Shown: positions 22,157 through 63,838 of the stretch, piece after piece | Layout: the number at the start of each line of letters is the position of its first letter | Numbering within the stretch: position 1 is the stretch's first letter | IMG/VR virus record: IMGVR_UViG_3300027844_002282 | DNA from: a virus | Reading direction: 5' to 3' (one strand) | Length of the DNA: 64,000 bases | Translations under genes and position numbers: made by a program | Notes under the pieces: generated by a model | What the model saw: the letters and a program-made list of their open reading frames with translations, nothing else | Database searches by the model: none | Told to the model about the DNA's origin: nothing

Positions 22157-22561
22157 TTAAAGTCCAGCCAATCCCCTAAATAAACGCATGGCACCAATTC
22201 TATCACCCGCGAAATTACCCTTTTGGTCATCTGGGCCAACAAAAAACCAGTAATCTCTGAATCTGTCGGTTGCAATTTCACCGAGGATCTTCCTGATCTG
22301 GGTGTGAGAGATATCTTGAGAAAAGGTCGCCTCAAAATTTTCCGCGAAGAATGTCAACCTACACCAGCCACTTGCGATAGCATTATAGCCAAGGGTGAGA
22401 CTGTCAAAGGGCATTGGAAACGATTCAGAACCAATCTCGTCTTCAGAAAGGTATTCTGCTAAAGCTTTCTCATGTCCCTGGAAATCATTTACGGGGACTT
22501 CTCCACCATCAGGGTCTATCCATAACCCATAAGCCCCTTGAGATTTTTTGTACCAATTCAT
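22157..22561 (-). CDS. hypothetical protein with MNWYKK leader
   Basis: 134-aa ORF starting MNWYKKSQ. Confidence 0.7.
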   Translation of the reverse strand: MNWYKKSQGAYGLWIDPDGGEVPVNDFQGHEKALAEYLSEDEIGSESFPMPFDSLTLGYNAIASGWCRLTFFAENFEATFSQDISHTQIRKILGEIATDRFRDYWFFVGPDDQKGNFAGDRIGAMRLFRGLAGL

Positions 22562-23303
22562 ATTTTGTCCATATCAAAATTTCTATGCTCAGTTGGGGAA
22601 ACGCCGGAGCGCGTAACTCCGCCCCTCTGGGCTCCTTTTCAACGAAGAGTAAGCATTAAAGAGGTACTGTCACAATTAGATGTACAATAAACTCAGTCCA
22701 CATCCCTCTCATATAACAATGACAGCATCGAGGTAAATATATGAAAAACTATGAAGAAATGAGCTGCGAAGAGCTTCGCCAAAACAGGAAAAAATAGTAT
22801 GGGGCTACTTAGCGCTATTTGTAAAGGTTGCAAGAAAAATATTGAACATTTTAGTTTCGACAATGACATCACCTGTAGAGGATGCGGAATTATAAATGCT
22901 TCAAGTGAAATTCAGCTTTCGACCTTAAGCTACGGAAAGGGACGTGAAGACGGAAAAGACTCATCATCCAGATGGCTTAAATCTTGGATGAACAATAGAG
23001 AAAAACATAATTCATTAGAAGATTGGTATAATGCACTATATAGTATTGTTTACAAAACCAAAAAGTCGCCGCCAAAATTCAAAACTAAAATATCCCTACA
23101 CGCATCAAACCTTCTTTTAAATATGGCAAGGCTTAAGAAAGAGGGGATGGGCGACGAGAAACACGACTATATGTGCGAAAAGATTTGCGATGTTATAATA
23201 GACGCAGAAGATTGGGAAAAAGAACATGATATAGAATCATAGTGGGAATAAATGGTGACAACATGACAAAAAGAATCGTAGTAACGAACAAGAGATAATC
23301 ATA

Positions 23304-24030
23304 ATGCAATGGGACTCAGTATACATGCCAAACTCAGCTTATCCCCCGCACGTTGGACATGCGGCAATGATCTTACACGCAAGAGCGAGCTTTCTCTACA
23401 CAAAATTTTATTTAGAATCTTATAACACGCCTGGAATCGATCTTAGATGGGGGGTCGTTCATGATGTTCGCTCAACACCAGAGTTTGAAAAAATGCAGGT
23501 TGATCTTATGAATTGGATGGGATACCCACCGGAATTTGAATTGCGACTAAATGAATATGGGAATTTTCAAGCCGACGTGATGTGCATGTTGTTAAAGATG
23601 GAAATTCGAGAGGCCGATTTCAAAAGCCTTGAAATTGGGAAGTTTATGGTTCTAAACTCAGTAAGAACTCACATAAGGGGGGTGGGACCTTGTTCCGTTA
23701 GAAAAAGTAGAGAGGCCATTGGCGGGCGCTTTTGGATTCGGCTACCCAACAATAAGATACGCCCCATTATTATTAGACAATAATGGCGAAAAGATATGCT
23801 CTAGTAAAAGCGAGCATAAAAAGTTTCAACTAACTCAAGTAACTATGGATTCAAATGGGCCAGACAGTCTGATTGAAAAGCTATTAAAATGCCACTGCCC
23901 TGACGCGGAACATGTGAGAGGCGAAGACCCTGACGAAATAGCGATCAGATGGTGTAGAAAACTATGGACGCATTACCATGGATTAGCTTGTCTTGGACAG
24001 CCAATGACGCCAATAAAATTTAACTTATAA
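23304..24030 (+). pseudogene. second divergent GluRS/GluQ-like domain, split by a frameshift
   Basis: PHVGH and HIRG in 23304..23783; YAPLLLDNNGEKICSSK in overlapping frame 23719..24030. Confidence 0.55.
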
Positions 24031-24033
24031 AAT

Positions 24034-24110
24034 GCCGATGAAACATTTATATGGATGATGTCCTGTCTTGTAAGCAGGTTAACTCGGATCGTTACCGAGC
24101 TTCGGCTCCA
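24034..24110 (+). tRNA. tRNA-Thr(TGT)
   Basis: cctgt-cttgtaa-gcagg; T arm ctcgg-atcgtta-ccgag; CCA. Confidence 0.85.
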
Positions 24111-24111
24111 A

Positions 24112-24603
24112 TTACGTCTTCAAACCGCCAGGAGCGTTTTGTTGATCAAAGTATTGAGTGACAGCACCCTGGTCAAAGTACCCCAGTTCCCCAAGATACT
24201 TCTCAACATCCAGGGAAGGGGCGAATACGCTTTTGAAATAAGTGCGTAGTTTTGGAATCACCTCACTTGGCATAAAGAGCCCGCTTCTGTTCATATCAAC
24301 AATGTGTATTTGAACCTGTTTGGTCCCTCTCGGATACAACGCTTCCCCTGCGTATGGGATAAGCCACATCTGAAGATACCCCAGACGAACATTCGTAGGG
24401 GCGAAAACCTGGATTTCAACAAGACTCCTGTCAGATCTATTTTCGACCCTTGATTTCACCTCAAGACCAAAAAACTCTTGAACTATATTAACAGCCCCGG
24501 CCTCTGCGGCCTGAACGTCTGCATCGTCCAAAGCCAATTTCTTGTCCAAAACAGATCTTACTTTCTGTTGAAGGGCATCATTATCGTCTGCATAAATTCT
24601 CAT
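24112..24603 (-). CDS. hypothetical protein
   Basis: 163-aa ORF preceded by AGG-N19-GTA motif (24644-24668). Confidence 0.65.
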   Translation of the reverse strand: MRIYADDNDALQQKVRSVLDKKLALDDADVQAAEAGAVNIVQEFFGLEVKSRVENRSDRSLVEIQVFAPTNVRLGYLQMWLIPYAGEALYPRGTKQVQIHIVDMNRSGLFMPSEVIPKLRTYFKSVFAPSLDVEKYLGELGYFDQGAVTQYFDQQNAPGGLKT

Positions 24604-24679
24604 GAAAATAACCTAATATGTAAAATTAACTTGTTTTTTCATATACGCGGTTACATTGCAGATATCCTTTTTCAATCTA

Positions 24680-24744
24680 TACATTGGTGGCGCAACAGGC
24701 TCTTAATCTGAAGGTTGCGGGTTCGATTACCGCCCGATGCACCA
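24680..24744 (+). pseudogene. tRNA-Lys(CTT) with deleted D arm
   Basis: cagg-ctcttaa-tctg, T arm and CCA intact; D arm truncated. Confidence 0.65.
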
Positions 24745-25056
24745 ATTACTCAAGGCCGAGCATCTCTTTTGCTCTCTCGTCAGTGATCAAGCCTGATTCA
24801 AAAGACTTAAAGATTTGCTCGAAAGAGAAACCGTCTTTGTAAATACGGCCAATCTCGTAAGCCTCGTTCCCATGCGGAACGGTAATTACAGCAGTGGCAG
24901 CCTGGGCGGCACCTAATTGCTTTTCGACTCTGGCCTTTTCTGACTCAAGGTCTTGGACGGAAGCGGGTGAATTTTGAGAGCCAACAGTAACGACAAATAA
25001 TCTTTTACTCATAATCAAACTCCTGTGGTTAGGTTAAAATATATTATACATCACAT

Positions 25057-25136
25057 GGACGCATAGCTTAGTCTGGCTAAAGCGCTTGTATGACACATGC
25101 AAGAGATCGTTGGTTCGAATCCAACTGTGTTCACCA
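25057..25136 (+). tRNA. tRNA-Val(GAC)-like with 9-nt anticodon loop
   Basis: cttgt-atgacacat-gcaag; canonical D and T arms; CCA. Confidence 0.7.
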
Positions 25137-25713
25137 AACTTAAAAATATTAATAGAAGGTCATATTATGGGTAAACATCACGAATGTAAAATTACAAAAC
25201 TAAAAGACCAGGAATTTTTCAAGAAAGATAATCCACACTATGGAAGGTCTCGCAGAATTTATAAGCAAGAATTCCACAGCCTTTGACCCAGATGATAAGA
25301 AAAAGCTAAAGCTATGGGCGGAAGAAGAGTTCGCGAGGCAAGAAAGGGCGTTAACAACTTGATATCAATAAGTAGTTAAAAGGATCTTAGTTAAAATCTA
25401 AAGAAATAGCCTATGGAGGCTATAAAATGGATGCTGACGAAAAAGATTTACAGAAAAGTCTTGGGATTGAAAACATAGATGAAGAAGATGAACTTCAGGA
25501 CGTGATAGGGAGAGAGGGGAAGATCGTTGAGGCGGACTTCCTGATTACGCAAATAATAATGCTACAATCCATCCTTAGAAGGGACTACTCTATCGACGAA
25601 AGAGAAATTAGGAAAAGGTCTTCCGTACTATGTAGAAGGTCCAATTTCGAATATTTATCAGATATTGTTAGAGAAATTGAATCCTTAAGAATAAGACATG
25701 ACAAGAAAAATAC

Positions 25714-25781
25714 GGCGGGATAGCTCAACTGGAAGAGCACTTGTTTCATACGCAAGAGGTTGGGGGGCGGTTCCGCCACCA
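25714..25781 (+). pseudogene. degenerate tRNA(CAT)
   Basis: D arm and cttgt-ttcatac-gcaag intact; T arm collapsed; CCA. Confidence 0.6.
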
Positions 25782-27272
25782 ATTTCCCACAACGACTTGA
25801 AAACAACGATAACAGTGCTATGTTATCTCATAACCTGCTTAAGGAAAAATCATGAATCATTACATCGAAGTGTTGATCAAACAAGAGATTGGGAAATTTG
25901 TCGAGGAAGAATTGAGAGGTAGATATAGAGATTACGTCTCAGACATCTTCTTGACTTCAATCTTATTGAATCGTATGAATGACAGCCATCATCATGGCGG
26001 CATATCAAGAGGTTAGTACTTTTTCGAGGACGACCACAACGCCACCGTTTTTTTACGAAGCATCTTGCTGTATCTTTGAATCGATCTTATAGTATGGTTG
26101 CAAAGTTGGCGGGAATGGCCATCACGTTGCCCAGAACTTTTATTCATACATGAAGATAAGATTGCATGGAGTGACAAGGGAAATCGCTATTAAAAAGGGC
26201 GAGACTATAGAAAGGGGTTATAATTAGCGCTCTTGAAGGAGAACTTAGTAAAAATCTCATAGAAGCCCGTGTCCCCCATTTGGCTGCGGCGATAAGAGAC
26301 ATGGAAGGTTGCCCTAATGGAGATCTAAAGTGTTCAAGGTGCAAAGCTGAAGGTGCGTCAAACAACAGACAACGCACCGCATATGCAAATCCAGACAATA
26401 TGGCAATTTATTGCCCATCATGTCAAGAAGAAGCGGACGCTTATTGGAAAGAGCAATGGGATGAATATTACGGTGCAATATTATAACTCGTAACCAGGAA
26501 GACATTATGACAATTTATAGAAGAACAATGGAAATTTCTAACAAAGAGTTGAGCAATGGCCAATGGGAAATTTTTAACAAAAAGAATATTGAATTTATTG
26601 CTCTGGCGCTAAGGAGCGACAAGTGGACATCAATTGATAATTTATCAAAAGACATTGGGCTCTATAGAAAAGCTCATAAAGAGCCAGAAATAACTCAAGA
26701 AGAGATCATCGTAGCGTTAGAAAGTTTAATATTGCACGACATGGCGGAGTGCAAAGAGTCCGAATAATACAACGAGAGGGAAGTATGGAAGATATGAAAT
26801 GGGAAATTGAGCCTCACAAACTAAGTCCGTGTCCTGGAGACTATGGTGAAATAATAGGGAACGTTAACCAAATGGAATATAATGGTAAAGAAATCCCATG
26901 GATACAGGATGTTCATTTATTGGTTGGCCAGCTACCCACATTTGAAAAAGAGATGAAATACGCGGTATTTCATGATTGCGTAGTAAAGTTAGACCGGAAC
27001 ACGTGCAAAAGTAAGCTAATGCCAGTTTATGAGGTGATCTCCAAAAGAAGGCCCATAGACACAAACGGTGAGGGAAACGAGTCTACTTACAAAGAGATGG
27101 AGATATTTCTTATGTCATGTCATCTTGACGCAAGAAGGACCTTGGCCTGCAATGTTCTCAAAGAGCTTGGTTGTGATTATGTAACTATGATTAGAAGGTT
27201 GGGTCCAACAATGATCGGCCCGCCAAACGGCTTTATTTATGAAGAATTAGCAATCGTTGGTCAATAATATAT

Positions 27273-27346
27273 GCTCTTGTGGTGAAAAGGAATCATTTCT
27301 CTTTCCTAAAGAGATGTTGCGGGTTCAAGTCCTGCCGGGAGTACCA
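27273..27346 (+). tRNA. tRNA-Arg(CCT)
   Basis: tctct-ttcctaa-agaga; CCA. Confidence 0.9.
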
Positions 27347-28781
27347 ATATAGTCCAAATATGATCCTCTCACCAATCTTGTTTATCAAAGATTATTTTGA
27401 AGGAATCGCATACGGACCTCCGAGAAAGTATAAAGCGAACATGAAATTAGTTTGTAATGACATCTATAGTTTAATAGGGGCCAGAGCATTTTCAATTTTA
27501 TAGAACAGGTAAAAAGAACAAACAGCAGGTATAGGTATGAATATCGAAAAAAATTTTTATATAACGATGTCCAATTCGGCGTAGAGGTCTTAGTACCAAG
27601 TTACCATACCATAGATAAAAACGCCATAAATAACGCGATAATAAAACTTGTAATGACTGGAGTGAAAAACATCAGTGTTGTAAAGTCTGGAGGCCAGGTC
27701 GGAATCATGGGATCAGAAAAAGAAATAACACCATGGTCTATATTTGGGGGAAGGGAATGAAAAAGAGTTCATTAATCCTGTTTATACTAATGACCATGGA
27801 GGCATTCTCATTTGAACCAAGGATGCAGGCCGAAGTCAGAACATACACTCCAGAGCACCTGGTTCCAAAAAAAGCAACAATTGAGCTTCTCGATGGCACT
27901 AAGATAATCGGAACTATAGAAGACAAAGATGGGAAATACATTATCAAATCCGAATCTGCCGGTGAAATAATCATAGAAAAAGACGAGGCGAAAATTATTG
28001 AATATAAGGAACGGGTTGTAAAGAAGAAAAGCGAGGGGAAAAAAACAATCAGTGATCTACAACAAATGATGCTTTCAGACCCAGACTTGATCAATGAAAT
28101 CATTCTTAGGTTCGCCACTGATAAAGATTTTCTTGATGTTATATCAGACCCAGAAGTAATAAAACATATCCAAGATTTTAATCTATTGGAGCTTCTTACA
28201 AATCCGAAAATACAGGCTCTTACCGAAAAGGAAAGCATTAAAGATTTTACCAAAAAAGTCACTGAATAATTATGGTCGAAGATGAAAAAGAATTACAAGG
28301 AATGATTGGACCTAACGGCGGGCCAGATATCCTATTTATAAGAAAATCTGAGACTCTTGATAGCATAGTCACAGAATACGAGTGGCCAAACGGATCTTCT
28401 TTCAGACTGGGATTCTCAGAACAGGGAGTCCGTGGGGATATTTATTGCGCGGACAGAAGTGGCGGTGTTAAAATGGGAATAGTAGACGACTCAGGAGGGT
28501 TTACTGTCCCAACATACTATTGTCATAAAATAAATATGCCAGTAATAATTAACGAATTGGCTATGCGTAGCTGTCGTAATATTTACATACTTAGAAAGGG
28601 CTCAGAACTTGGCGTGTTTGGCGGAAACATAGAACTTGATCTTTCTAAACCAGACAGGGGCTAAAGACTAATGCTAAGTAGAGAGTTCCTGTTAGATTTA
28701 GAAAAATGTTGTGGCAGCGGATGCTTTAACTGCCCATATGACCCAAGGCACACGAGAGGGTCAGAAAAAATTTCAAAAGAC

Positions 28782-29242: not shown

Positions 29243-29272
29243 ATTATGTAGAACCAAAAACGTAGAGAATTT

Positions 29273-29359: not shown

Positions 29360-29911
29360 AATGTGAAACCATAACCAATAAAGAACAACTAATAGATAAC
29401 AATAAATAGAATAACATAATCATAACTCAAAAAAAGGGGGGCGCATGAGTTGGTGGAAATTTTGGTCTAAGACCAAAAATTATAGGGTGTCGGGAGCGGA
29501 AGTGATTGAAGAAAAATGGCCAAGTGACAGGCTAATAATTATAAGAAAAAACAAGGGCGAATCAGTGATCTATTTGAAAGACACTAAGACCCCAGTAATA
29601 GCAAGAAACGATGATAATGATTACATTTTAATACCAAAATTTGAAGTGGGTAAACCATATCTAAAACTGAAAGATCTCGCATACAAAATAGCAAAATTCG
29701 GAATCTATACACACATACACATTTTCAACATAGACGGGAGTACGGTAGCGGTGGTGGGAACCGTTAGAAAAATCGGGTTAGCTAAGGAGTTTTATAGCAT
29801 AAGAGATAGCTCAAGCGCACATAATATTAACAAATATGTATAAAAGGGCTTGACTTTTCCCAATACCGAGCATATATTATCAACCAACGTACAATCAACA
29901 AGAGGTGAACC

Positions 29912-33418: not shown

Positions 33419-33420
33419 AC

Positions 33421-34407: not shown

Positions 34408-34832
34408 GCCTTAAAAGAAGTATACAGATAGCATACGAAAACAAGCTCGCTCGCGGGTGGGACAGAACTTATTGGGCTATCGACTTGCATGGAACAATAT
34501 GCCCTGGGGGATATTATTTAAACGATTTGGAGAACCAATCATTTTATCCTATGGCAGAAGAGGCGTTGAAAACGTTGACAGCAGATCCCGAATTGATTTT
34601 AATCTTATGGACTTGCTCACACGAGCCTTACATAGAAGGGTATTTGAAATGGTTTAAGAAACATGGAATCAAGTTTGATTTCATAAATTCTAATTTAGAA
34701 TGTCTCCCAAATGAATTTCAAGATTTTAGCAAGAAGTTTTATTGCAATGTTATTCTTGATGATAAAGCCGGATTTAATCCGTTATCTGATTGGCAGACTG
34801 TTCTTGAAGGGTATATACAATACAAAGAATAA
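34404..34832 (+). CDS. HAD-superfamily phosphatase-like phage protein
   Basis: AIDLHGTI, ILWTCS, ILDDKAGF. Confidence 0.75.
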   Translation: MSLKRSIQIAYENKLARGWDRTYWAIDLHGTICPGGYYLNDLENQSFYPMAEEALKTLTADPELILILWTCSHEPYIEGYLKWFKKHGIKFDFINSNLECLPNEFQDFSKKFYCNVILDDKAGFNPLSDWQTVLEGYIQYKE

Positions 34833-35290
34833 TGGGTAATTGGTACAAAACAGCTAAGAATAAATCCGCTAAAATGCCAGAAAATTTTTAAGTTGTTGAG
34901 AAGGGTCCCGACAATGGTTATTCATTAGACTGGAAACTATGGGCAGGCGCAAATGACTGGGAGGCCGGAATCACTCTAATGGCAGTCCTATTTGGACGTG
35001 ATACACCTGGTCAGAATAGAATCTGGGTTGAGATAGATAATAGCCAATTCCCAGATGGAAACAATAACGATAAAAAAGATGACGTTATTAATGAAATCAG
35101 AGAGTGGGGAGATCTCGCTATTAAGACTTGGATCGATGAAATGAAAGTCTCCGAGAAAGAAAAGGGCAAAGACTGGGAGAACCTACCACTTGACAATTTC
35201 ATGGGTGCTTTAGATTCAGATAAAATGAAACCATTTATATCTGAATGGGGATTTGATTCCTTATTATGGAAACCTACTGGTAAAAATTAA
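34832..35290 (+). pseudogene. MGNWYK-leader protein interrupted by an in-frame TAA
   Basis: ATG 34832 is in frame with ORF 34979..35290, with a single TAA at codon 20. Confidence 0.5.
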
Positions 35291-36593: not shown

Positions 36594-37106
36594 ATGAGGA
36601 AAAATATAACAATTTGGTTTACCGGAATCCCGTGCAGTGGGAAAACAACCTTGGCATTGTCTTTCAAGAGAGAGTTAGAGACTCTTGGCCACAAGATTGT
36701 CCATTTAGATGGAGATAAATTAAGAGAGGGTTTATGCAAGGGCCTGGGGTTTTCTAACGAAGGGAGAAAAGAAAATTTGAAAAGGGTAGCTCACGTTGCA
36801 GAGTTACTGAACCAGGAAAATATTATTGTATTAGCAAGCTATGTTTCCCCAACTGAGGAAATGAGAGATGTGGTTAGAGAGATCGTTTCAGATCTAAACC
36901 TAATCCATGTCGATTGTTCACCAGAAGAATGCGCCAATAGAGACGTTAAAGGGATGTGGAAGAAGGCTAAAGATGGAGAAATCAAAGGATTCACTGGATA
37001 CGATGCCCCGTTTGAGCAGCCAGTTGATGCCGAGTTAACAATAAATACAAACGACTTGACATTAACGGAATCTATCGGTATATTATTAAACCATTTTAAC
37101 TCATGA
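36594..37106 (+). CDS. cysC: adenylyl-sulfate (APS) kinase
   Basis: WFTGIPCSGKTT, LDGDKLR, RDVKG, FTGYDAPFE. Confidence 0.95.
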   Translation: MRKNITIWFTGIPCSGKTTLALSFKRELETLGHKIVHLDGDKLREGLCKGLGFSNEGRKENLKRVAHVAELLNQENIIVLASYVSPTEEMRDVVREIVSDLNLIHVDCSPEECANRDVKGMWKKAKDGEIKGFTGYDAPFEQPVDAELTINTNDLTLTESIGILLNHFNS

Positions 37107-38292: not shown

Positions 38293-38997
38293 GGGGACGT
38301 AACAGGTATTCGACTAGAATGGTAGAATATCAATTGCATGTCGAGGATGACTGTTGGCCTCGTTAAACATCAGTTAAAAAACATAAAAGCGAACAACGAA
38401 GAAATCCTTCAGTTCCCTGGTCTTGATGCAGGTTTTGCAGCACCAGTAGAGGCTCCGGCCTTTGCAATCGCTGCCTAATTAGTTGACAGACTAACTCGGC
38501 CTTAATTGAGCCGAGCGCTTAACGGATGGACCCTTGATAAATCCGTAAGCGACAAAAATCGAGGAAAGCGCTTGATACTGACTCACCTGAGTTGAGAGTG
38601 AAAGTTTTAGGTGATCGTCATACTGCCAGTTGGTGTTAATACCTGCGAATGTAATACGGCACAGACTAAAAGATAGCAAAATTAACTATACATGTAGACG
38701 TTGATATAAAGTTGTTTTAGGACGCGGGTTCGATCAAATTGGTCGCCATGAGAAGTGATTCTCATTGGAAACTGAGAGCTTTCACGGTGAAAGCTAAGTT
38801 GAGTAATCAATATGCCAACGCCGTATGGTGAATCTGAAAAGAGGAAGCCATCTAGAGACTTATAGAGTCCTAAGGTATTTATACTATGGATCACTAGGAT
38901 GGGTAAAACCATAACACGCTCTCCCCTGACTTGTCAGGTGAAGAAATAGTCCTTGCCAGGTGAAAGTCTGGGTGTACAAGCCCCGCCGTCTCCACCA
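38293..38997 (+). ncRNA. ssrA: tmRNA (intron-containing); tag ANNEEILQFPGLDAGFAAPVEAPAFAIAA at 38389-38478
   Basis: GGGGAC...TCGAC 5' end; G3:U acceptor with gtctccACCA 3' end; tag ends IAA; T arm split. Confidence 0.93.
38735..38980 (+). mobile_element. group I intron in tmRNA T-loop
   Basis: 5' exon ends in U with P1 cgat/gtcg (U-G pair); R element AGAGACT, S element AAGAAATAGTCC; terminal G; splicing restores gcggg-ttcgatc-cccgc. Confidence 0.88.
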
Positions 38998-39002
38998 ATA
39001 TG

Positions 39003-39040
39003 AAAAAGGCTGAGTGCCTATAAAGCACTCAGTCTTTTTT
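39003..39040 (+). terminator. intrinsic terminator after tmRNA
   Basis: aaaaaggctgagtgc-loop-gcactcagtctttttt. Confidence 0.85.
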
Positions 39041-39114
39041 GTTTTCGAAGGGAATTGTTTTAATAAGAAGGCCCTTCGCCTCCACCTGTAGTATAATATG
39101 TTAGAGGTGATAAG

Positions 39115-39690
39115 ATGGCAAAAGAGAAAATAAAATGCGCTAACCCAGCATGTGAAAAAATTTTTGAAAAAGAAAGGAAAGAAATAAATAGAAGCGAGAG
39201 ACTTGGGAGGCTTCAATATTGTTGCTCTTCTTGTTATGGGAACCACAGGGGGAAGAACGCCTTGAAGTTCGTGTCGGAAGAAAATATTAAAAGGAATCAA
39301 ATAAATATTAAAAACTATTGTGGAAACAATAGAGATGGGTTTACAAGGTTTAGATATTTTCTAAAAAATTATAGAACAAGGGGCAAAGAAAGGCCTCAGA
39401 AAAAAGGGGATATAGACCTGGAATTCTTAAAATCACTATGGGAGTCTCAGAAAGGCATTTGCCCTATTACTGGATGGAATATGGTTTTGCCAAACTCTAT
39501 TGCCGGATGGGAAGACAAAGGTATGATGAGAGCGAGTCTTGATAGAATCAACTCTAATTTTGGGTACTTTAAAAATAACGTCAGATTCGTTTGTTTTATT
39601 GCAAACATTGCCAAAAACAATTTTTCAGATAATGATTTATTAAAATTTTGCGAGGCCGCGACAAAATTTAACAAAAAGTCAGATTTATAA
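39115..39690 (+). CDS. HNH-type (homing) endonuclease with N-terminal Zn-binding Cys motifs
   Basis: CANPAC...YCCSSC; CPITG...SLDRINSNFGY...NVRFVC...N. Confidence 0.75.
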   Translation: MAKEKIKCANPACEKIFEKERKEINRSERLGRLQYCCSSCYGNHRGKNALKFVSEENIKRNQINIKNYCGNNRDGFTRFRYFLKNYRTRGKERPQKKGDIDLEFLKSLWESQKGICPITGWNMVLPNSIAGWEDKGMMRASLDRINSNFGYFKNNVRFVCFIANIAKNNFSDNDLLKFCEAATKFNKKSDL

Positions 39691-49981: not shown

Positions 49982-50251
49982 ATGAGTTGGTATCAAATAT
50001 CTTCATTTAACAAAAAGGACCTGTCGGACCAGGATTTGATGAAAATCCTCGACGGTCTCCCTAATGACTTGGGTAAATTAGCTGAAGAAATAGGTCTATC
50101 AGAAACTCCAAATAAAGACTCTGAAGAATTCGAAACATGGAGAGACAGAGCCATGGATTTCGTAAATATGATCTCAGAGACCGAAACAAAAACCGCAAAT
50201 GATCATGAAACCCCTGAGTACTGGGGCGTTAAGCAAGATCTATTGGAGTAA
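49982..50251 (+). CDS. hypothetical protein with MSWYQ leader
   Basis: 89-aa ORF. Confidence 0.55.
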   Translation: MSWYQISSFNKKDLSDQDLMKILDGLPNDLGKLAEEIGLSETPNKDSEEFETWRDRAMDFVNMISETETKTANDHETPEYWGVKQDLLE

Positions 50252-51303: not shown

Positions 51304-52916
51304 AAACCCCTCCGATTGTTTGTAACGTCTATTGTATAATACATCTAAGATACCGATGTATAATTTAAAAACCGATTAATATTAAGAGAGGACTCTATGA
51401 GCAGAAACATAATTCGGATAAATAGTGACATAAAGCCAGAAAGTGGTCTATTATGCCATAGTGGAAAAGTATATTACGGAAAAGAAGAGGTGGCATTAGA
51501 AGAAGAGCCATCGGTATACCTTCAACAATGGCCGAGCATGAAGCTGATGAAGGTCAACAGAGACTGTAACTATTTCATGATCCCATTCACTGAGTTGTTG
51601 ACTGAAACCGCATTACCTTTTGAAGAAGTAGAGAAAATGTGTGAGTATTTGGGATGGTCCAGCGAAGACGTTCTATCTCATATGGTCAATGTTGGGCAGC
51701 TAAATATGTATGAGAAGATGAAGAAAATAGAGTCGAGTTTTCCAGAAAACTGTACGATTGTAGAGCTTTTCACCCTCAAAAACTCCATATGCACCCAAAG
51801 CGAAGAAGAAAAGGCGGTTTCCGACAAAGAAAAAATTTACAAGAGAAATTTGGCTACAAGGGTTGCAATATTCACAATCGGTAGTCCATTGACCCCTGTT
51901 GTAGATGAATCAACGATTAAAAACAGCGCCGAACAAACAGAAGAGGGCATCGAACATGAGCGATCCGAAAAAGAGTCAGCCAAAGGACTCAATCCTTTGG
52001 GGGTGGAAGAATGAAAAAGTTCCTGACAGCGGCTTTGTTGTCAACGGCATTGATACCACTCACTTTGAGCTTTTTGATTGTAAGTCGAAAGAGAAAGCGT
52101 CGTTTGTGCGTCCCATGTCGAAAACGTCCGCTCACTTTAAGGGACTTTCAGAAATTAAGGAAGTTCTTATAGAGCTTCTCGCCAAAAGGCTCGTCCATGA
52201 TTTATACGCTGTTAATGGATTACTTCAATCCGCTGGTCTCGGAGACGGATTAATCCCGTCAGACATTCTCGAAATAATCAAAATCGCCGAGGACGAAGAG
52301 GCGGATGAAGATTACGATAAAGAAACTCATGATTTGATGTCAACTTTAACAATCGTTGAGGATAATCTCAATGAAGATGGTGAAACGACAGATTCCCCAC
52401 CAGACGATGTGGCTTAGATAGCGGGCTCAGCAAAGGAATTTTGCCAGTCCTTAATTATGCTAAGTCTTGCATAATATCTTTTTGTGGATTCTGAATTTAT
52501 AACTGAGAACCCAATCTGCAACTTGAGGGGACTATCAGAATTATAGATTGACCACTTGTTAGCCCTGGCATGATCATAATGTGACCTCAACTCGCCAATA
52601 TTATCGACTTCAATTTCTTCATCAACCGATCCGAATACAGGGACCTCCAATAAAAAATCCCTGTCAGAATTCCCATTCTCAAATATCACAAATCCCATAT
52701 TTCCAGAGACACTATCCCACGCTGGTAACACTTCAGGATTGATCCCGCTTTTAACGAAAACATCAATGATGTTTTTTAACTTCTCCGCCGATGCGATTCC
52801 CTCAGTTTGCTGACCACCCTCATAGTCTCCCCTTTTTATGAACTCATCAAAAGTTACCGTTCTACCTATTTGTTTCACTATTCTTACTCCGACTTGAATT
52901 TTAGTTATACCATGGT

Positions 52917-53790
52917 ATGGTACACCTTAACGAAGAGAATTATATGAATGTGACCTGGGCAATAGAGGAAGAGATATGGAATGACAACAGTGTCGCCCTC
53001 TTGAGCGATGCTCTTGACGGGTTAGGAATACCATACTTCAAAGTTTCACAACAGGCACACTGGGATCACGTTTCCGGGAAACCATTCCTTCCAGAATACG
53101 ACAAAGAAGATTGCATAATTTTCTACGGGTCACTTCAAGTGGCAAAGGATATTATGAAAACGAAACCTTGGATACCGGGGGCTTCTATACCCCGGAGAAC
53201 TATAGATGTTCAAAATATTATCCAAAACTTGGATCGACTCTCACCAACTCAGAATATATAATGTTGCCAATTGGAGAGTTGAACAGGAGAAAAGAATTTC
53301 TCTTGAAGACACTCGGTAAAGAAAACACATTGTTCATCAGACCTGACGACGAGGCAAAATTATTCACGGGACAAACCATTGAGTTGGAAAGGTGGGACAA
53401 GGACTTCGTCAAATTACAGCATATGGAGTTGACGATAGTGAGATCGTAATTGTTGCGCCACCAAAAAATATAGAGAAAGAATGGCGATTCATAGTTTGTG
53501 AAGGGAAGGTTTTAACAGGGAGCCTTTATAAAAGTGGGGGGGGGTAAATCCGTTAGAATAGAAGGCGCTCCTAAAGAATCTTATGATTTGGCACAGTCAA
53601 CAGCTGATAGATATTGTCCTGACAGAGTTTGGGTTTGTGACATCTGTCAAACCAGGTTAAAAATATTATTATGTTTTAGAGATCGGATGTTTTAGTTGTG
53701 CTGGATTATATGCAGCAGACATGGACATCGTCGCTAAAGAAGTTTCGAATGCAGCGTATAATGAATACAAAGAAATAATGGAGATATAAA
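52917..53790 (+). pseudogene. ATP-grasp (R2K/DUF4343-like) protein, multiply frameshifted
   Basis: FYGSL, FIRP...KLFTG and EWRF in successive frames; one break at a G homopolymer (~53535). Confidence 0.6.
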
Positions 53791-54387
53791 ATGAGGGCTT
53801 GGTTCACAGCAGACTGGCATCTTGGACAGAAAAATCCAGAGATCATGCATCGTCCATTCGAGGGGCCGGATGAGATGGCAGATTTCATGTCAAATAGACA
53901 CAATACCTTTGTAAATGAAGATGATACGGTATATGTCGTCGGCGACGTGTGCCACTCAACTTCCCCAGAGGCGCTCCCTCAAGTGGCCAAGTTCAACGGG
54001 AGGAAAGTCCTTATCAGAGGAAATCACGACAGAGTTTTCTCAGATGATGAGTTGAGACCGTATTTTGATGTCATTGTCGCAGAGGGTGAGGGTGTAGAAA
54101 TGGGTATCAACGGATTACCATGTTATGTCACTCACTACCCAACTTGTGGCGTTGCAAACAGATTCAATATAGTAGGCCATGTTCATAGTGTTTGGCGTCT
54201 CCAACTTAATATGATAAATATTGGAGTTGACGCCAATCATTTTACGCCGACAAGTGCTGACAATATACCTAAAGAGTTGGACTCAATTAGAACTTTCTAT
54301 GATGATGACGCCTGGGTTGCATACAATGAAACAAATTCAATGTTTTACGGAAAGAGGGGGTTGCAGGAAACACGGTTTCCTGAATAA
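53791..54387 (+). CDS. calcineurin-like metallophosphoesterase
   Basis: DWHLG, VGD, GNHD, THYP, GHVH. Confidence 0.9.
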   Translation: MRAWFTADWHLGQKNPEIMHRPFEGPDEMADFMSNRHNTFVNEDDTVYVVGDVCHSTSPEALPQVAKFNGRKVLIRGNHDRVFSDDELRPYFDVIVAEGEGVEMGINGLPCYVTHYPTCGVANRFNIVGHVHSVWRLQLNMINIGVDANHFTPTSADNIPKELDSIRTFYDDDAWVAYNETNSMFYGKRGLQETRFPE

Positions 54388-54389
54388 TT

Positions 54390-56536: not shown

Positions 56537-57217
56537 ATGAATTGGTATAAAAAAGCAACAAGAGACCGAAACTCTAAAATACTATATTATGTGGGACCTG
56601 GCCCTGCACAGCCAAACCCACCAAAACATGGTGGATGGAGTAGACGAGATAAGGAGTACGGAAAACAAGAGAAGGTATTCTTCTTAACCCCAGACTATTG
56701 CACCGTATGGACAAACCATGGAAGAAGGGGAAACGTTTACATATATGAAGTCCCCAATTGGGTTATAAAGGAAAGTGGAGGCGTTCAACGATATGATAAT
56801 GCTGCCGAAGTTATAATTCCAGCGTCTCTTTTTGTAGAGGTAAAAATGATTGGGAGTATTGATGAGCAAAAGGTCAATGACAAATGCCGACACAGATTGA
56901 ATAACTACGTAAAAAGGATGGATCTATTTGATAAAAGCGAGCCAGAAGAAAAAGTAGATGTTGGGTCATTTGTACATTGGATGAATGCATCTGAAAAGGG
57001 GATGCCAAAAGAAACCATATTTAAAGTTGACAATATAAAAGGAGGAATGATTGAAATATCAGTCGTTGGGGCGCTTCAGTTCTCTTATAGATATGATGAC
57101 AATGGAAGAATGATGAGGAAATGGAACATACAGAAAGGCGAAGGGAAATACACCTCTAAGCAACAATCAGTATACCCTATAAGCAAAAAAACCCAGTCTC
57201 AACTGGCGGAAGTATAG
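56537..57217 (+). CDS. MNWYKK-leader protein, possible ADP-ribosyltransferase-like fold
   Basis: LYYVG...VFFLT...VYIYEV...EVIIP spacing resembles an ART core. Confidence 0.5.
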   Translation: MNWYKKATRDRNSKILYYVGPGPAQPNPPKHGGWSRRDKEYGKQEKVFFLTPDYCTVWTNHGRRGNVYIYEVPNWVIKESGGVQRYDNAAEVIIPASLFVEVKMIGSIDEQKVNDKCRHRLNNYVKRMDLFDKSEPEEKVDVGSFVHWMNASEKGMPKETIFKVDNIKGGMIEISVVGALQFSYRYDDNGRMMRKWNIQKGEGKYTSKQQSVYPISKKTQSQLAEV

Positions 57218-58287: not shown

Positions 58288-58373
58288 AATGCACCTCTAT
58301 ATGATTATACAAAATAGGAGCAATTAATCCCTATCCAAGAGGACATAAGCTATAAAAAACTGAAATAATGGTT

Positions 58374-58676
58374 ATGAACTGGTACAAAATATCCGCAATA
58401 GAGAGATACTCACTAAACGGGGCTGTTTTTTCAATAAAAACATCTCATGGGGAATTTATTGTCTCAATCACCAAGCCAGCAGTTTTAATATCTGGAGAAA
58501 GCATCCTTACTAAAACAAAGAAGCTAACAGATAAGACATCAAACACAAGGGCAGAAGCGATATCTATCCTTAAAGAGCATGGATATGACGGGATAATCCA
58601 ACTCGGAGAAGAAAAGCCGTCAATAGAGCCGTTCTTCAAGAATCAAGTTAAAAGAATTTCTATTCGAAATCTATAA
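58374..58676 (+). CDS. MNWYK-leader protein
   Basis: starts MNWYKISA; GYDGII motif. Confidence 0.6.
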   Translation: MNWYKISAIERYSLNGAVFSIKTSHGEFIVSITKPAVLISGESILTKTKKLTDKTSNTRAEAISILKEHGYDGIIQLGEEKPSIEPFFKNQVKRISIRNL

Positions 58677-58808
58677 CGTGTAAGGCGGCTTCTTATTAGG
58701 GAATATTTGAGTGTCTAACTTCCCACTTGGTGGAATCTTCGGCTGCTTTTTCTTCTTTTTCTTCTTTTTCTTCTTCCCAGCTTCAATGTATTTTTTGTAC
58801 CAATCCAT
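58671..58808 (-). CDS. 45-aa poly-lysine protein with MDWYKK leader
   Basis: MDWYKKYIEAG-K10-QPKIPP...; RBS AGGAGG; absent from ORF track because <60 aa. Confidence 0.7.
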   Translation of the reverse strand: MDWYKKYIEAGKKKKKKKKKKQPKIPPSGKLDTQIFPNKKPPYTL

Positions 58809-58855
58809 AAGGCCTCCTATATAGACTCTTTCAACAGAGGATGGCACCATTCCTG

Positions 58856-59545
58856 TTAGTCCGCAAACATTGAGGCGAAAATATCGTCGTCATCATCAGC
58901 GTCATTTACTACAGTTTCTTCGACACTTATAAGATAACCCTTGCCGTTCTTATCAATAACCCCAGAGATGTATTTTGGGTCAATGAAATCCGTTAACCAA
59001 ACATCATTATCCGCCAAGAATAAGTTAACACCGTCATCCCGCATCGCTTTCGTATCTATTCGCAATATAACAGGTGTGCCATGGCGCTGCCCGACACTCG
59101 TTGCTGTTGGGATATCCGCAGATATGTGAACATACTGACGCTTCCCCTTGCTTACACCAGAACCCATAATTGGAAACAACACCTCAAGGCTTGTCCCATG
59201 GAATAATTCATCTGGCGGAGCAGTTGGTGACAAATTGAGATCGACATCTATTGAATGTCCCTGGTTCGCCCTAACTCTTTGACCATCGTCACTGACCGCA
59301 AATCTCTTCTTATTGTTAGTGTCAACAACGTTGTCGAATTGGGCTCTCGTAACATCGGTTGCCCCGGCTTTCTTAACCTGATTGATTCTATTGATAAGAT
59401 AATCAATACTTGTCCAGCCTTCTCCATCAAGTTTGATCCCCATCGCTTCCGGCTTGTGTCTCAAGACCAAGCTCAATATTTTACTCAAATTGTAATCTTT
59501 CATAGTAGTTTCATTTTTAGTATTTACGAAGACAATATAGCACAC
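58856..59545 (-). CDS. kptA: RNA 2'-phosphotransferase (Tpt1/KptA)
   Basis: SKILSLVLRHKP, KKRF, RANQGHS, HGT, RQYVHIS, VWL. Confidence 0.95.
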   Translation of the reverse strand: MCYIVFVNTKNETTMKDYNLSKILSLVLRHKPEAMGIKLDGEGWTSIDYLINRINQVKKAGATDVTRAQFDNVVDTNNKKRFAVSDDGQRVRANQGHSIDVDLNLSPTAPPDELFHGTSLEVLFPIMGSGVSKGKRQYVHISADIPTATSVGQRHGTPVILRIDTKAMRDDGVNLFLADNDVWLTDFIDPKYISGVIDKNGKGYLISVEETVVNDADDDDDIFASMFAD

Positions 59546-59647
59546 GTAATGGCCATTACAAGCGGGTTGGCGGGATTTGTCAAATAGTATACTATAATGG
59601 CCATTATCCCGCCATTATGGCGGGAAAAATGGCACTTTAGTGACTTA

Positions 59648-61246
59648 TTACACTTGTGAGCTAACAAGTGACTGCACAACTTCCTGGAATCTCGGATCTG
59701 CCTCTAAGGCTGATCGTACATTCGCTTTCGTGACTTCAAGATCTTCATCGATCAAAGACGGATTATCAAGAATAATGTCTTCCTGAACTTCTTTGATGAT
59801 TCCAATATGACGCCCCGGCTTGATATCAGGAACTCTGGCTCTCAACATATTCATGATCTCATGCCCATCAATAATGTCCTTCCCCTTTTCAGGGAGCTTC
59901 TCCATCATTAACTCAGGCATCCTGTTCTTTATCAACGCACTATTGTTCTTCAGCTCACCTTCTGCGGGAATTGAAGAGACTTCATCCGCGACGAGAAGAG
60001 CAAGAACGTCATCAAAAGCATCGTCCATATCTCTGTAATAGCGTCTAAAGGCCTTGTCACCCCATTCTCCGGCGCTGTGTCCTCTCATATGATTATCAAC
60101 AAGCTTAACAGTTTTATCGACAACGTCATTGGGATACTTCAAAGCCTTCATTCTCTCTTTAATCATATCTCCAGAATGCTTCTCGTGCTTGTAGAAATGG
60201 ATTCTATCATCGACCCTCTCTTGAGTGACTGCCTTCCCCCAATCGTGAGAGATAGCCGCCCAAGTAAGATGGATTCCAGCATCGGGGTTCTCATTTTCCA
60301 AAGCCTCAATAACTTTCAAGGTATGGACGTATGCATCCCCTTCACTGTGATGGACAGTATCCTGTTCAACTCCAATCAAAGCATGCATCTCAGGGAGAAT
60401 GGGCTCAAGGAGATCAAGCTCTTCCATCAACGGAATAGCTTCATGCATCTTACCGTACCCAGCAATTTTGTCAATTTCACCACGAAATCTTTCTGCTGAA
60501 GTATTGGAGAGATTGTGAATATTATTCCTGATCGCCTCTTTCACTTCGTCAGTCATAGTCCATCCATGCTTAACAGCAAATCTGACACCCCTAAGCATTC
60601 TAAGAGCATCGTCCTCAAAGATCGGATTGGGATCGCTCGGAGTCCTGATAATTCCATCTTCAATATCCTTCAAGCCCATTCCGGTCAAATCCACAATGTC
60701 GCCATTAGATATTTTTTCTGCAAGAACATCGGGGGAAATAACAGGTCCAGCCTCCATCTTCTTCAAAAGAGAGTTAACAGTAAAATCCCGTCTCATAACA
60801 TCATCTTGAAGAGTCCCAAAGGCAACCTCCGGTTTACGACTTCCGGTCCTGTACTGCTCCTTTCTGGTTTGAACGGCTTCGATCTCAATGCCATCGACAT
60901 TGTATGTCTGTCCTTTGTATATCAAATCTTTCAATATGACAGCGTAAACACCGTATCCCTTATCAATAGGGGGCTTCAAGCCAAGAATCGATGTGACGTA
61001 ATCGCCAAACACCAAGCCACCATCGGGATATTCGATTACAGCATCGATATCCTTGGGGATAATTCCAAGCATCTCATCTCTGACAGTTCCGCCAACGATG
61101 TAAGACTTTCCTTTGAGAACATGCCCATTGGGAATGTTCTTTGCCACTTCCGACAAAAGAATCTGCGCCTGAACAAAAGGGGCGTCGGAATTATCCGCAT
61201 CAGCAGTCAAGTATTTTTCTAAATAAGTTTTTTTGTACCAGTCCAT
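59648..61246 (-). CDS. cca: CCA tRNA nucleotidyltransferase with HD domain and MDWYKK leader
   Basis: VGGTVRD, DID, RRDFTVN, EDDALRMLR, ERF; HD domain HTL...HDWGK. Confidence 0.92.
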   Translation of the reverse strand: MDWYKKTYLEKYLTADADNSDAPFVQAQILLSEVAKNIPNGHVLKGKSYIVGGTVRDEMLGIIPKDIDAVIEYPDGGLVFGDYVTSILGLKPPIDKGYGVYAVILKDLIYKGQTYNVDGIEIEAVQTRKEQYRTGSRKPEVAFGTLQDDVMRRDFTVNSLLKKMEAGPVISPDVLAEKISNGDIVDLTGMGLKDIEDGIIRTPSDPNPIFEDDALRMLRGVRFAVKHGWTMTDEVKEAIRNNIHNLSNTSAERFRGEIDKIAGYGKMHEAIPLMEELDLLEPILPEMHALIGVEQDTVHHSEGDAYVHTLKVIEALENENPDAGIHLTWAAISHDWGKAVTQERVDDRIHFYKHEKHSGDMIKERMKALKYPNDVVDKTVKLVDNHMRGHSAGEWGDKAFRRYYRDMDDAFDDVLALLVADEVSSIPAEGELKNNSALIKNRMPELMMEKLPEKGKDIIDGHEIMNMLRARVPDIKPGRHIGIIKEVQEDIILDNPSLIDEDLEVTKANVRSALEADPRFQEVVQSLVSSQV

Positions 61247-61295
61247 AATTAACCAAGTTTCAAGTAATTATACAAATTCGCTCAAGGACCCACCT

Positions 61296-61784
61296 TCAAC
61301 AATATCCCTTGTGGAGCAAAATATCACTTCTGGAAGATCGTTTATTGGGAAGAACTTCCATTCTTCGTACTTGTCCTTTTCCATTATCTTTGGGGGCCTG
61401 TCTCGTGTCCCATTTAGCGATGAAGAACAATGTTACATAATGCAATCCCTCGTCCTCCATTATATTATTTGTGAAACGAACTTGTTCCACACTATCTATT
61501 GTAACACCAGACTCTTCTTTAACTTATCGTTCGCAACATTCAAAGAACCCCTCTCCAATATCTATATGACCGCCGTCACAAAGAGCTTGAAAGACAACAG
61601 AGACGCTGCTTTCACCCATAAAGTCAATAAACTTTTTTTCACCATCAAGAATTATTCTCATATGCTCGAAAAAATGTTCGGGACATGAGATCAACCCAAG
61701 TATTGCGTTGGTCGCCTTCATATTATCAATAAAGTTGCAAAGATAACCACGGCTTCTTCCAATATAAGAAGATAAATTTTTCAA
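61296..61784 (-). pseudogene. Nudix hydrolase (NUDT15/MutT-like), interrupted
   Basis: Nudix box GGHIDIGEGFFECCER*VKEESG with in-frame TAA; FTNNIMEDEGLHYVTLF; later frameshift. Confidence 0.7.
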
Positions 61785-62418
61785 TGCATAATCATCAATC
61801 TCCGAAAAGATGATTATGCGTCAACATTGAATTCGTTCCATTAACAATAATATTGACTGATTCCTTGCTCATTTCTTTTTCCTCTTTGGTTTTTCGTCTT
61901 TATTTAATTGTTTGTAATCAGCGAAATCTACGTCAGGGAGATCGAAGCTCATCTCTTTCTCATCAAGAGATTGGAGAGCTTCTATCAACTCCTTAGGATA
62001 AAAATGTGTCAAGTGAAGCTCACCTTTGTTGAGATCCTTGAGTATGTATAAGCTAAAACTATTTCGAGGTGCTTTGTGAGAGTGGTTTTTGATTAAGACC
62101 CAATACTCTCGTGGATTTTTGGCGCTCGAAACTATTTTTATTACTGTGCCGTAATAGAGGCGCTGACCTTCAGTTATCATCTTTTTCTACAACACTTATC
62201 CAGTGCCCTACGGAGTATGCAGAAAAGATCTTTCCACGGGTGTCAAAAAAATCCAAGACTCCAGCGCGGATTTCAAAACGATCCGCAGATATCGTTGCAG
62301 AGGAACGATCCGTGTGGTGCCCTCCTGGCATACCAGGGCTCAATGTTCCTACTATGTATGTCATATAACGCCTCATAAGTTAAGTTATTTTTGTTAGCTG
62401 GTGAGGTACTATAGCTCG

Positions 62419-62823
62419 CTAATCCAGGATATCAACAGTATGCGCCCGTTTTTTTCTATGTTTTCTCCAGGCACACCAGCCACCGGCCCTGCACCCGAAC
62501 CACATTAGGAGTCTCAGGTAGGTTTTGGTCCCCGAAGATTTCATAGCGCGACGAAAAATACCGTCAGCATCTTTTCTCGACACAATTCCTGTAGCGTATA
62601 GGTAATCGTGAAGAACCGCAGCGGCGGCATAAGTCCCCGTTGGTGGAATGAGATTCCAGAAAATTCTTGGAATAGAAGCAAAATCTGTAATTGTCCCCTT
62701 AGGAACCGTAAATGTTTCACGATTACCTTTGTAGCGAAGAATGTTTTCGGTCTTCCAATATCTACTGTTATGTTGTCGTACAACTACATCATCTAAAAAA
62801 TTATTACCCACTTGATACCTCAA
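62419..62823 (-). CDS. DUF1353 family protein
   Basis: VPKGTITDFASIP, AAVLHDYLY, ADGIF. Confidence 0.85.
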   Translation of the reverse strand: MRYQVGNNFLDDVVVRQHNSRYWKTENILRYKGNRETFTVPKGTITDFASIPRIFWNLIPPTGTYAAAAVLHDYLYATGIVSRKDADGIFRRAMKSSGTKTYLRLLMWFGCRAGGWCAWRKHRKKRAHTVDILD

Positions 62824-62826
62824 GGT

Positions 62827-63582
62827 TTAATAGGAGTCGCCAGAAACCCAATTGGGATCTGGAGTCCAAGGATCAGGTTTGATAACCGTCACACACTCCG
62901 AGGGGATCATCCCAAAGAAAACCAAAGTATCATCCGAAAGCATATCACCATCTATTTGTTCATCGTAATAATTTTCAACCCCTATCATATGGGCAAGGGC
63001 TTCTTTTTTATGGTACCCTTCGAGCGGATCTTCGCCGCCGACCTCTGGCACGGCACCCATCGATTTCATTTTCCCAACATCGATTTCTACAATAGCATCA
63101 TAGTCTCTGTCGGCAGTTTCGTAATCTGGAGAGGTGAAGACCCCACTTGGAGTCCATTTATTACTGAGCCCCCTACTTTCACTTCTTGGCTCTATCCCCT
63201 CATGGACGAGAGAATTTAATCGGTCAGAAGTAGTCCCGTGGTAGACTTTGTAATTATCGCCGACAGTGTCCCAAAACGGATCTTCTTCAGGGCTTGCTAT
63301 ATAACTATATATCTCCAGATCTGAAATATCACTAAGCCATTCATTTGTGTCCTTTATTGAAACACCAAATCCCTGTAGGCTACCATCCTTATTGAAGTCG
63401 TCAATTAACTGATCGTTGTCAAATACCAGAACAGGAGATGCTTCATGGAATTTAACTATTTCAAAAGTCTTCCCATAGTGATTCAAGATATTGATAATCC
63501 TTTGAGTACTTTCCGACTCTTCAATATCATCGTCAAAATATCCAGAAAAAGTCTCTTCTTGTGCTGATTTATACCAATCCAT
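62827..63582 (-). CDS. MDWYK-leader protein with ART-like domain
   Basis: likely start ATG 63582 (MDWYKSAQ); VYHGT...GIEP...GVFTS. Confidence 0.6.
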   Translation of the reverse strand: MDWYKSAQEETFSGYFDDDIEESESTQRIINILNHYGKTFEIVKFHEASPVLVFDNDQLIDDFNKDGSLQGFGVSIKDTNEWLSDISDLEIYSYIASPEEDPFWDTVGDNYKVYHGTTSDRLNSLVHEGIEPRSESRGLSNKWTPSGVFTSPDYETADRDYDAIVEIDVGKMKSMGAVPEVGGEDPLEGYHKKEALAHMIGVENYYDEQIDGDMLSDDTLVFFGMIPSECVTVIKPDPWTPDPNWVSGDSY

Positions 63583-63583
63583 A

Positions 63584-63838
63584 TTAATAACTCTCAATAG
63601 ATATTGACCACTCAGTCTCAATAGATTCGATTTCTGAGATAGTCTTGTCGATATTTTCCGGCGGCATTTCGCTGGGGTTGAAAAAAACAATAGCGGACTT
63701 ATTCATCTTGTTAAAATGAGGAAACCCATCTCCGCCAAATCTTCGAAAAGAAGACACGATTGAATTCAATTGTAGAGTTAGATTGTCTTTGGAATCATTT
63801 TCCTGAATACTCTTCGCCTTTTTATACCAATCCATCAT
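63584..63838 (-). CDS. MDWYKK-leader hypothetical protein
   Basis: RBS AGGGG before MMDWYKKAK; AGG-N19-GTA motif at 63862-63886. Confidence 0.6.
   Translation of the reverse strand: MMDWYKKAKSIQENDSKDNLTLQLNSIVSSFRRFGGDGFPHFNKMNKSAIVFFNPSEMPPENIDKTISEIESIETEWSISIESY

Follow-up and report, generated by a model that had tools for sequence, protein, structure and literature searches.

Short terminal peptides that dock unrelated enzymes inside a shell are found as the cargo-loading peptides of encapsulins, whose shell has the HK97 fold, and as the encapsulation peptides of microcompartments. Phage T4 has a diverse set of internal proteins in which nothing but the capsid-targeting sequence (CTS) is conserved, and this peptide brings them into the scaffolding core (PMC3012670); according to Mullaney and Black (1996, as cited in PMC10052503), it is removed by the prohead protease. 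The prohead proteases of giant phages (SPN3US gp245, phiKZ and 201phi2-1) cut N-terminal propeptides at one recurring motif, which is present in many copies in scaffold-like head proteins (PMC10052503). Iyer et al. (2017, PMC5512222), in a paper where the term 'N-terminal leader' was not found, predicted that polyvalent proteins, with ART-PolyVal, kinase, nuclease and peptidase domains, are packaged along with the DNA and injected together with it. The present analysis concerns a peptide tag, MNWYKKAQ in its typical form, carried by otherwise unrelated proteins in a 64,000-nucleotide stretch of viral DNA (IMG/VR record IMGVR_UViG_3300027844_002282; the whole stretch is called the window below). 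The source is an uncultured marine giant phage, and the window sequence is also present on metagenome contigs of up to 153 kb at 99.97-100 % identity, among others in JGI 3300009409 and in the COLA18 sample of ENA ERZ23486727. A sequence-only reading of the window had noticed the tag at the start of eight or nine genes and proposed that it was an N-terminal leader loading cargo into the head for injection. The tag proves to be a genuine modular element that is under selection as a peptide and specific to one lineage; it also looks functional inside proteins and, in related phages, is linked by position to head genes.

All nine tag-bearing ORF starts were found where they had been placed by the sequence-only reading: at 34832, 49982, 56537 and 58374 on the plus strand and at 22561, 58808, 61246, 63582 and 63835 on the minus strand. 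Six-frame translation of the window gives WY[KQ] 14 times, nine of them directly after an initiator Met. The window contains the DNA pattern ATGNNNTGGTAYMAR (ATG-NNN-TGG-TAY-MAR) eight times, while 100 dinucleotide-preserving shuffles gave a mean of 0.11 and a largest value of 2, which bears out the suspected N-terminal enrichment. With the first 12 residues masked, no mutual relation among the nine bodies was detectable by BLAST, in agreement with the claim that the proteins are otherwise dissimilar. Synonymous sites within the tags vary (AAT/AAC, GAT/GAC, TAT/TAC, GCA/GCG/TCT/TCC), and the 70 nt upstream of the tag starts show no similarity among them.

The tagged protein with the clearest family is a 532-aa CCA-adding enzyme (tRNA nucleotidyltransferase with an HD domain; 59648..61246, minus strand). 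It is a class II CCA-adding enzyme with PolyA_pol head, RNA-binding and HD domains, matching three Pfam families over their cut-offs (PF01743, 62 bits; PF12627, 48 bits; PF01966, 27.6 bits) and phrog_2244 with E 5e-59. Solved CCA- and A-adding enzymes align to it from about residue 47 onward, where its catalytic head domain begins, so the leader and a linker of about 35 residues are extra; this answers the question, raised by the sequence-only reading, of whether the leader of this enzyme is an add-on. A search of IMG/VR for its close relatives found none. The 226-aa protein (56537..57217, plus strand) is built of MNWYKKAT, a 6-residue linker and a body. Three further tagged ORFs encode 134 aa (22157..22561, minus strand; MNWYKKSQ; within the tRNA gene region, with an orphan body), 89 aa (49982..50251, plus strand; the weak variant MSWYQISS; adjoining the RNA ligase gene) and 83 aa (63584..63835, minus strand; MDWYKKAK).

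ART-like proteins had been listed among the presumed cargo, and this part of the proposal largely fell away. When the 251-aa protein (62827..63582, minus strand; MDWYKSAQ) was compared with the ART-PolyVal (PF18760) profile, just the 8 leader residues aligned, and the protein has no Pfam or other family match. The 100-aa protein (58374..58676, plus strand; MNWYKISA) shows a weak, sub-threshold likeness to C-terminal ART-PolyVal/DUF7307, limited to 17 C-terminal columns with a probability of 9 % and a Pfam E of 0.027, below the cut-off. Neither protein was thus found to be a member of ART-PolyVal. The 45-aa ORF (58671..58808, minus strand) reads MDWYKKYIEAG followed by a run of 11 lysines in mixed AAG/AAA codons. 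Gene callers place its start 14 codons upstream of the MDWYK ATG, and an AGGAGG box 6 nt before that ATG supports the start chosen in the sequence-only reading. The 19-codon ORF MGNWYKTAK (34832..34891, plus strand) is doubtful as a gene because the public annotation of this contig omits it; it is possibly a remnant or a micro-peptide, and it is the one start in the earlier list whose gene is in question. A possible tenth member or tag variant is a 132-aa ORF (29445..29843, plus strand) starting MSWWKFWSK, with aromatic-aromatic-Lys at the same positions. The tagged orphans of the window have almost no homologues, with two matches each.

A scan of IMG/VR with the tag DNA pattern found tandem arrays of small genes, all starting MNWYKKA[QKST], on contigs that are fragments of several-hundred-kb genomes (CheckV estimate). 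One of these relatives, G005 (IMGVR_UViG_3300033145_003233, 547,943 bp), is a complete genome with about 18 tagged genes. Altogether 76 tagged ORFs fell into 64 BLAST clusters after masking of the first 12 residues. In uncultured huge phages the consensus M-[NDS]-W-[YF]-[KR]-x-[AS]-[QKST] is carried by about 70 proteins with about 60 unrelated bodies, and the information is limited to residues 1-8 (N59/D6/S3, W68, Y63/F5, K65/R2/Q1, K>R>Q/I, A39/S14, Q23/K11). Since the terminase, the portal and a giant protease-scaffold protein are common to the window phage and the tag-bearing genomes, the tag is a trait of a clade. In an unrelated 735-kb huge phage, which has the nearest homologue of the CCA enzyme, the tag count is at background. 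The tagged cargo includes ART-PolyVal, AAA_33 PNK-like kinase, HicA, 2H/LigT phosphoesterase, cREC_REC, SLT transglycosylase with a membrane helix, HTH_23, DUF5661, PARP+GNAT and CCA-enzyme families; the ART-PolyVal assignment of the tagged G005 protein family has an E of 8e-15. PHROG and Pfam annotation of the untagged neighbours in the G005 arrays is mostly blank.

In bacterial and archaeal genomes the tag DNA pattern gave 60 matches, mostly internal or out of frame and not at gene starts. Their largest recognisable group consists of Sel1-type repeats (AMNWYKKAAEQG); the tag string is the start of the Sel1-repeat helix (EAMNWYKKAAEQG; loci L195, L201, L215, L238 and others), which explains many of the bacterial matches. 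The few genuine N-terminal cases lie on phage-like contigs binned into metagenome-assembled genomes (MAGs). The identity with the Sel1 string could mislead motif searches for the tag. One G005 protein is deposited in NCBI under a 'Candidatus Asgardarchaeia archaeon' MAG, which is either a binning error or a hint of the host. Four strings of the tag, sought in the full text of a paper library, gave just two hits, both irrelevant.

The tag is a swappable peptide added to unrelated proteins, as three cargo families show in which tag-less homologues start exactly at the body. About 50 ART-PolyVal homologues of at least 60 % identity start MNWYKKAxxY-[IV]-x-YHG; of those with about 54 % identity or less, most begin M-IVYHGS, with no tag, and three exceptions in that range (P0052, P0070 and P0071) are still tagged. 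The CCA enzymes of G001 and LR756501 are without the tag, and one homologue of the 226-aa protein, 44 % identical, has no tag and begins with the body itself (MILYHIGPGP). The modularity that the sequence-only reading had proposed is therefore upheld by these families and by the roughly 60 unrelated bodies in the relatives. The peptide itself is under selection, as that reading had supposed: the tag Trp is invariant, Tyr to Phe and Lys to Arg (AGA, CGA) are tolerated, and Ala, Ser and Arg codons drift. In cultured phages with an ART-PolyVal body the alignments begin at residues 6-13 and none of these phages was shown to carry the tag, so no virion proteome can be borrowed from them.

Copies of the tag were also found away from the N-terminus. 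An 811-aa multidomain protein of the head region with a C-terminal nucleotidyltransferase domain (L258:14257-16692), encoded 1.5-4 kb before window position 1, has SWYRKAQ at residue 227, and its orthologues in G001 and G004 (22-30 % identical) have NWYKTAQ at the aligned position, a conserved domain boundary and the exact end of the first homologous block. These orthologues start MNIKKISQ and MKIHKIGQ. A G005 fusion protein retains the tag between its two modules, and two proteins have it at the C-terminus. These copies show that the motif is not an N-terminal leader in the strict sense, so the earlier description fits the nine ORF starts of the window and has to be widened for the internal and C-terminal copies.

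Several observations link the tag indirectly to the head. A contig walk outward from the large terminase gene (1001-2752, minus strand, the first gene of the window) passed the genes of the portal, a 1585-aa protein, a 1754-aa protease-scaffold protein (L262:14779-20043), whose N-terminal part (about residues 40-260) is a head maturation protease domain, and a 2071-aa AAA protein. The capsid gene of the window phage was not reached in this walk. In G005, six of the 18 tagged genes lie within a 31-kb zone of capsid, protease-scaffold, portal and terminase genes, where about one was expected. Five relatives have tagged genes inside the head operon or at a distance of 0.1-5 kb from the major capsid gene: in G007, where there are three on the same strand, and in G005 and G002 they come directly after the capsid gene, and in G001 and G004 the tag array abuts it.

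The protease-scaffold proteins are giants of 1750-1870 residues, with the protease domain first and then a long scaffold-like region. The giants of four relatives contain 29 phi-phi-[KR]-x-[AS] sites (phi, hydrophobic) against about 9.5 expected, and IKTAS-type sites in the giants have a conserved position. Acidic and reversed motif controls, as well as other long G005 proteins examined for phi-phi-[KR]-x-[AS], were flat. Sites of this kind also occur at domain junctions in the head region of the window phage, where the domain of a DUF192 protein ends at residue 110 and IKTAG follows at 116, and a trypsin-like protein has MKTAN at 120 and its domain start at 156. An AlphaFold2 model of the protease domain, made from five sequences, had a mean pLDDT of 48 and was unusable.

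Several gene starts in the head region resemble the tag without being identical to it. The N-terminus of the giant itself was considered as a tag carrier (MAMYKRA, MIYKFA), with Lys and Ala invariant; in the window phage another residue takes the place of the aromatic one and the site (GIRKIA) is 14 residues into the protein, and this was kept as a weak lead only. The major capsid proteins of G001, G002, G004, G005 and G007 (287-290 aa, 71-94 % identical) vary in their first 7 residues and retain hydrophobic-x-K-x-small (MAIDKKA, MAFDKKG, MINKRS) with the spacing of the tag. A sibling leader, MK[IL][IVY][KR]x[AS], marks no fewer than 10 of the 24 genes that follow the G007 capsid gene (L263, 412000-428000), mixed with MNWYK-type genes, and three of these sibling-leader genes have a longer N-terminal domain of about 32 residues in common. 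It was also seen in G001 (24085-24291, 38805-39164, 52300-54327) and G004 (540-1361, 18290-18496, 18864-19823), and a conserved 68-aa MKIYRIA protein is encoded inside the head operon of G001 and G004.

By analogy with T4 capsid targeting, the preferred though tentative reading is that the tag is a short motif read by the head protease or scaffold core. A clade of uncultured huge phages would then bolt a portable address tag, usually at the very N-terminus, onto unrelated accessory proteins. The reader would be the phage's own protease-scaffold giant, and the tag would fall within the same hydrophobic-hydrophobic-Lys-x-Ala/Ser family as the sites along the giant and at the head-protein domain junctions. 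Tagged proteins would dock on the protease/scaffold core during prohead formation and be trapped in the head, and trimming at the tag after docking may or may not occur. A wider version, possible at best, is that NWYKxAQ and the sibling MK-I-[IY]-K-x-A form a position-tolerant code, read by the giant, that puts dozens of interchangeable enzymes for anti-defence, RNA repair and host takeover into the capsid, from which they would be co-injected, a plug-and-play arrangement replacing the giant polyvalent proteins of smaller phages.

Several observations weigh against head loading. The capsid proteins of the genomes with capsid-adjacent arrays are so similar (71-94 % identical) that these genomes are not independent lineages, and gene neighbourhood is in any case weak evidence in phages. 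The tagged genes of the window are separated by at least about 20 kb from the terminase gene, beyond which, in the opposite direction, come the portal and protease-scaffold genes. The giant of the window phage is itself not significantly enriched in the sites (3 against 1.5 and 9 against 6.6 expected). The sites in the giants use I/V/L and end in A-[STAG], and the tag uses W-Y and prefers Gln after Ala, so the two are similar and not the same. It is not obvious that a virion would carry a CCA enzyme, a kinase or HTH proteins, and C-terminal copies would suit a docking motif for any partner, not a protease specifically.

Another possibility is that the tag docks proteins on a partner outside the head. 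This could be a host hub (ribosome, RNA polymerase or chaperone), or else a scaffold of the phage on which enzymes of RNA repair and host takeover assemble during infection. The occurrence of the motif at N-termini, internally and at C-termini is as expected of position-tolerant docking motifs, many of the cargoes act on RNA or translation (the CCA enzyme, PNK-like kinase, 2H phosphoesterase, cREC and HicA, with Tpt1 and RNA ligase encoded nearby), and the tagged genes of the window phage are in an accessory/RNA-repair region outside the head module, which also speaks against head loading. However, such docking leaves the site enrichment in the protease-scaffold and the capsid-side clustering unexplained, and no candidate reader was found; the one idea tested, a Sel1/TPR-type receptor prompted by the identical string in Sel1 repeats, was rejected when PF08238 found no Sel1 protein in G001-G005. 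This explanation is considered rather unlikely. A degradation signal is also conceivable, recognised by a host AAA+ protease or adaptor and giving toxic effectors a short life. The ClpX N-terminal motif is of a polar-hydrophobic-hydrophobic-basic type and ClpS reads an N-terminal Trp, which the tag would expose after trimming of Met-Asn. The pattern is no more than alike, several cargoes are toxic enzymes (HicA, ART, nuclease-like) and the tag is nearly always N-terminal, but the conserved in-frame internal and C-terminal copies do not fit a signal that needs a free N-terminus and argue strongly against it. Moreover, repair enzymes of the CCA type gain nothing from a short life, no link to such a protease was found, and the ClpS route calls for an additional, hypothetical trimming enzyme. 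A degron is on these grounds improbable.

The same internal and C-terminal copies argue strongly against a nucleotide-level element, which had been named at the outset as what could overturn the peptide interpretation. In that case the first five to seven codons would boost initiation, or a shared 20-nt start would allow recombination of cassettes, the peptide having no role. The tandem arrays of small genes do resemble cassettes, and slight codon skews exist: the Lys-5 codon is AAA in all eight window tags counted, against a background of 54 %, and codon 2 is AAC in 12 of 12 tags of G001 and G004, genomes in which AAT makes up 70-77 % of Asn codons and AAC about 25 %. The skews amount to a mild codon bias at gene starts, in addition to the constraint on the peptide. 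The Trp codon TGG is invariant despite being the least A/T-rich choice, whereas Phe can replace Tyr, Arg (CGA included) can replace Lys, and the codons for Ala, Ser, Tyr and Asn drift. No conservation is seen in the upstream DNA, and the motif stays in frame even in the interior of proteins, where translation does not initiate. An initiation or recombination element is accordingly very improbable. The chance is smaller still that Trp-Tyr-Lys-Lys is a patch anchoring proteins to the inner membrane or to RNA/DNA with no protein reader. Aromatic and Lys residues are typical of interfaces and stacking, and in three tagged proteins a membrane helix comes directly after the tag, but seven residues are too few for stable binding, and the strict N-W-Y-K-x-A-Q order with a conserved small residue 7 points to a shaped pocket and not to bulk chemistry.

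If the tag is a head-loading or processing signal, as proposed above, sequence alone would suffice to list which proteins enter the cell with an uncultured huge phage. The list for the window phage would contain the CCA enzyme, which repairs tRNA, and the poly-lysine peptide; that for its relatives would contain ADP-ribosyltransferases, kinases, a HicA toxin and a transglycosylase. T4-style cargo addressing would then have arisen independently and at a larger scale, and foreign proteins could be packed into large capsids by means of an eight-residue handle. Even without a known reader, the tag can be used as an annotation marker that defines a huge-phage lineage, fixes start codons and flags fast-evolving unannotated accessory genes.

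A megablast search of the first 20 kb of the window against GenBank phages gave 0 matches, and a comparison of between-sample variation across the contigs carrying the window sequence gave no signal. There are 13 tRNA genes between 16.8 and 29.4 kb; a tRNA-Cys predicted by ARAGORN at 25057-25136 has the anticodon ACA, which is unusual for Cys. Genes of nucleotide and sugar metabolism are present, as is an operon of a trypsin-like protease (PF13365; 42631-43494, plus strand) and a peptide deformylase (PF01327; 43702-44328, plus strand). The substrates of these two enzymes are protein chains or N-termini, and they could bear on processing of the tag. The accessory region encodes, besides numerous small orphans, the CCA-adding enzyme and a Tpt1-type 2'-phosphotransferase. 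The tagged genes of the window are interspersed with a full RNA-repair kit: an APS-kinase-like P-loop kinase (36594-37106), an RNA ligase (PF09414; 48571-49230), a metallophosphatase (53791-54387), the Tpt1/KptA 2'-phosphotransferase (58856-59545) and the CCA enzyme. Only the last of these is tagged in the window; relatives tag the kinase instead. In the head region, the 1585-aa protein met in the contig walk (L262:10001-14758) had no family match, and a 138-aa protein that is standalone between the portal and the giant in relatives is here fused to the front of this 1585-aa protein.

Among the known systems, the Sel1-like repeat (PF08238), usually tandem, is a 36-residue unit of two helices. 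Its string A-M-N-W-Y-K-K-A-A-E-Q-G is the start of the repeat helix and shares only 7-8 residues with the tag; the rest of the repeat is lacking in the phage proteins, whose copies are terminal and single, and the tag does not belong to this family. The T4 CTS, MKTYQEFIAE, is an N-terminal peptide of about 10 residues on diverse, fast-changing accessory and anti-defence proteins (IPI, IPII and IPIII), and a short N-terminal peptide is likewise shared here. The consensus MNWYKKAQ has no sequence likeness to it, so the tag is an analogue at most and not a member. It differs from the CTS also in having internal and C-terminal copies, in a cargo that includes large enzymes and a membrane-anchored transglycosylase, and in being found in huge phages unrelated to T4. 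As with the protease motifs of giant phages, copies of a short consensus, here hydrophobic-K-x-A, are repeated along the protease-scaffold giant and at domain junctions; the motifs of SPN3US, phiKZ and 201phi2-1 have a terminal Glu, and mass spectrometry has proven that they are cleaved, whereas the huge-phage motif is basic (K-x-A) and its cleavage is putative. Encapsulin and microcompartment peptides bind the shell protein itself and stay uncut, whereas the reader proposed here is the protease-scaffold. With polyvalent proteins the tagged set has the same kinds of domains in common, and the tagged G005 protein is a member of ART-PolyVal. The polyvalent domains are, however, strung together in one giant polypeptide, often on a MuF or portal-binding module, while the tagged domains are separate small genes, each with its own 8-residue tag.

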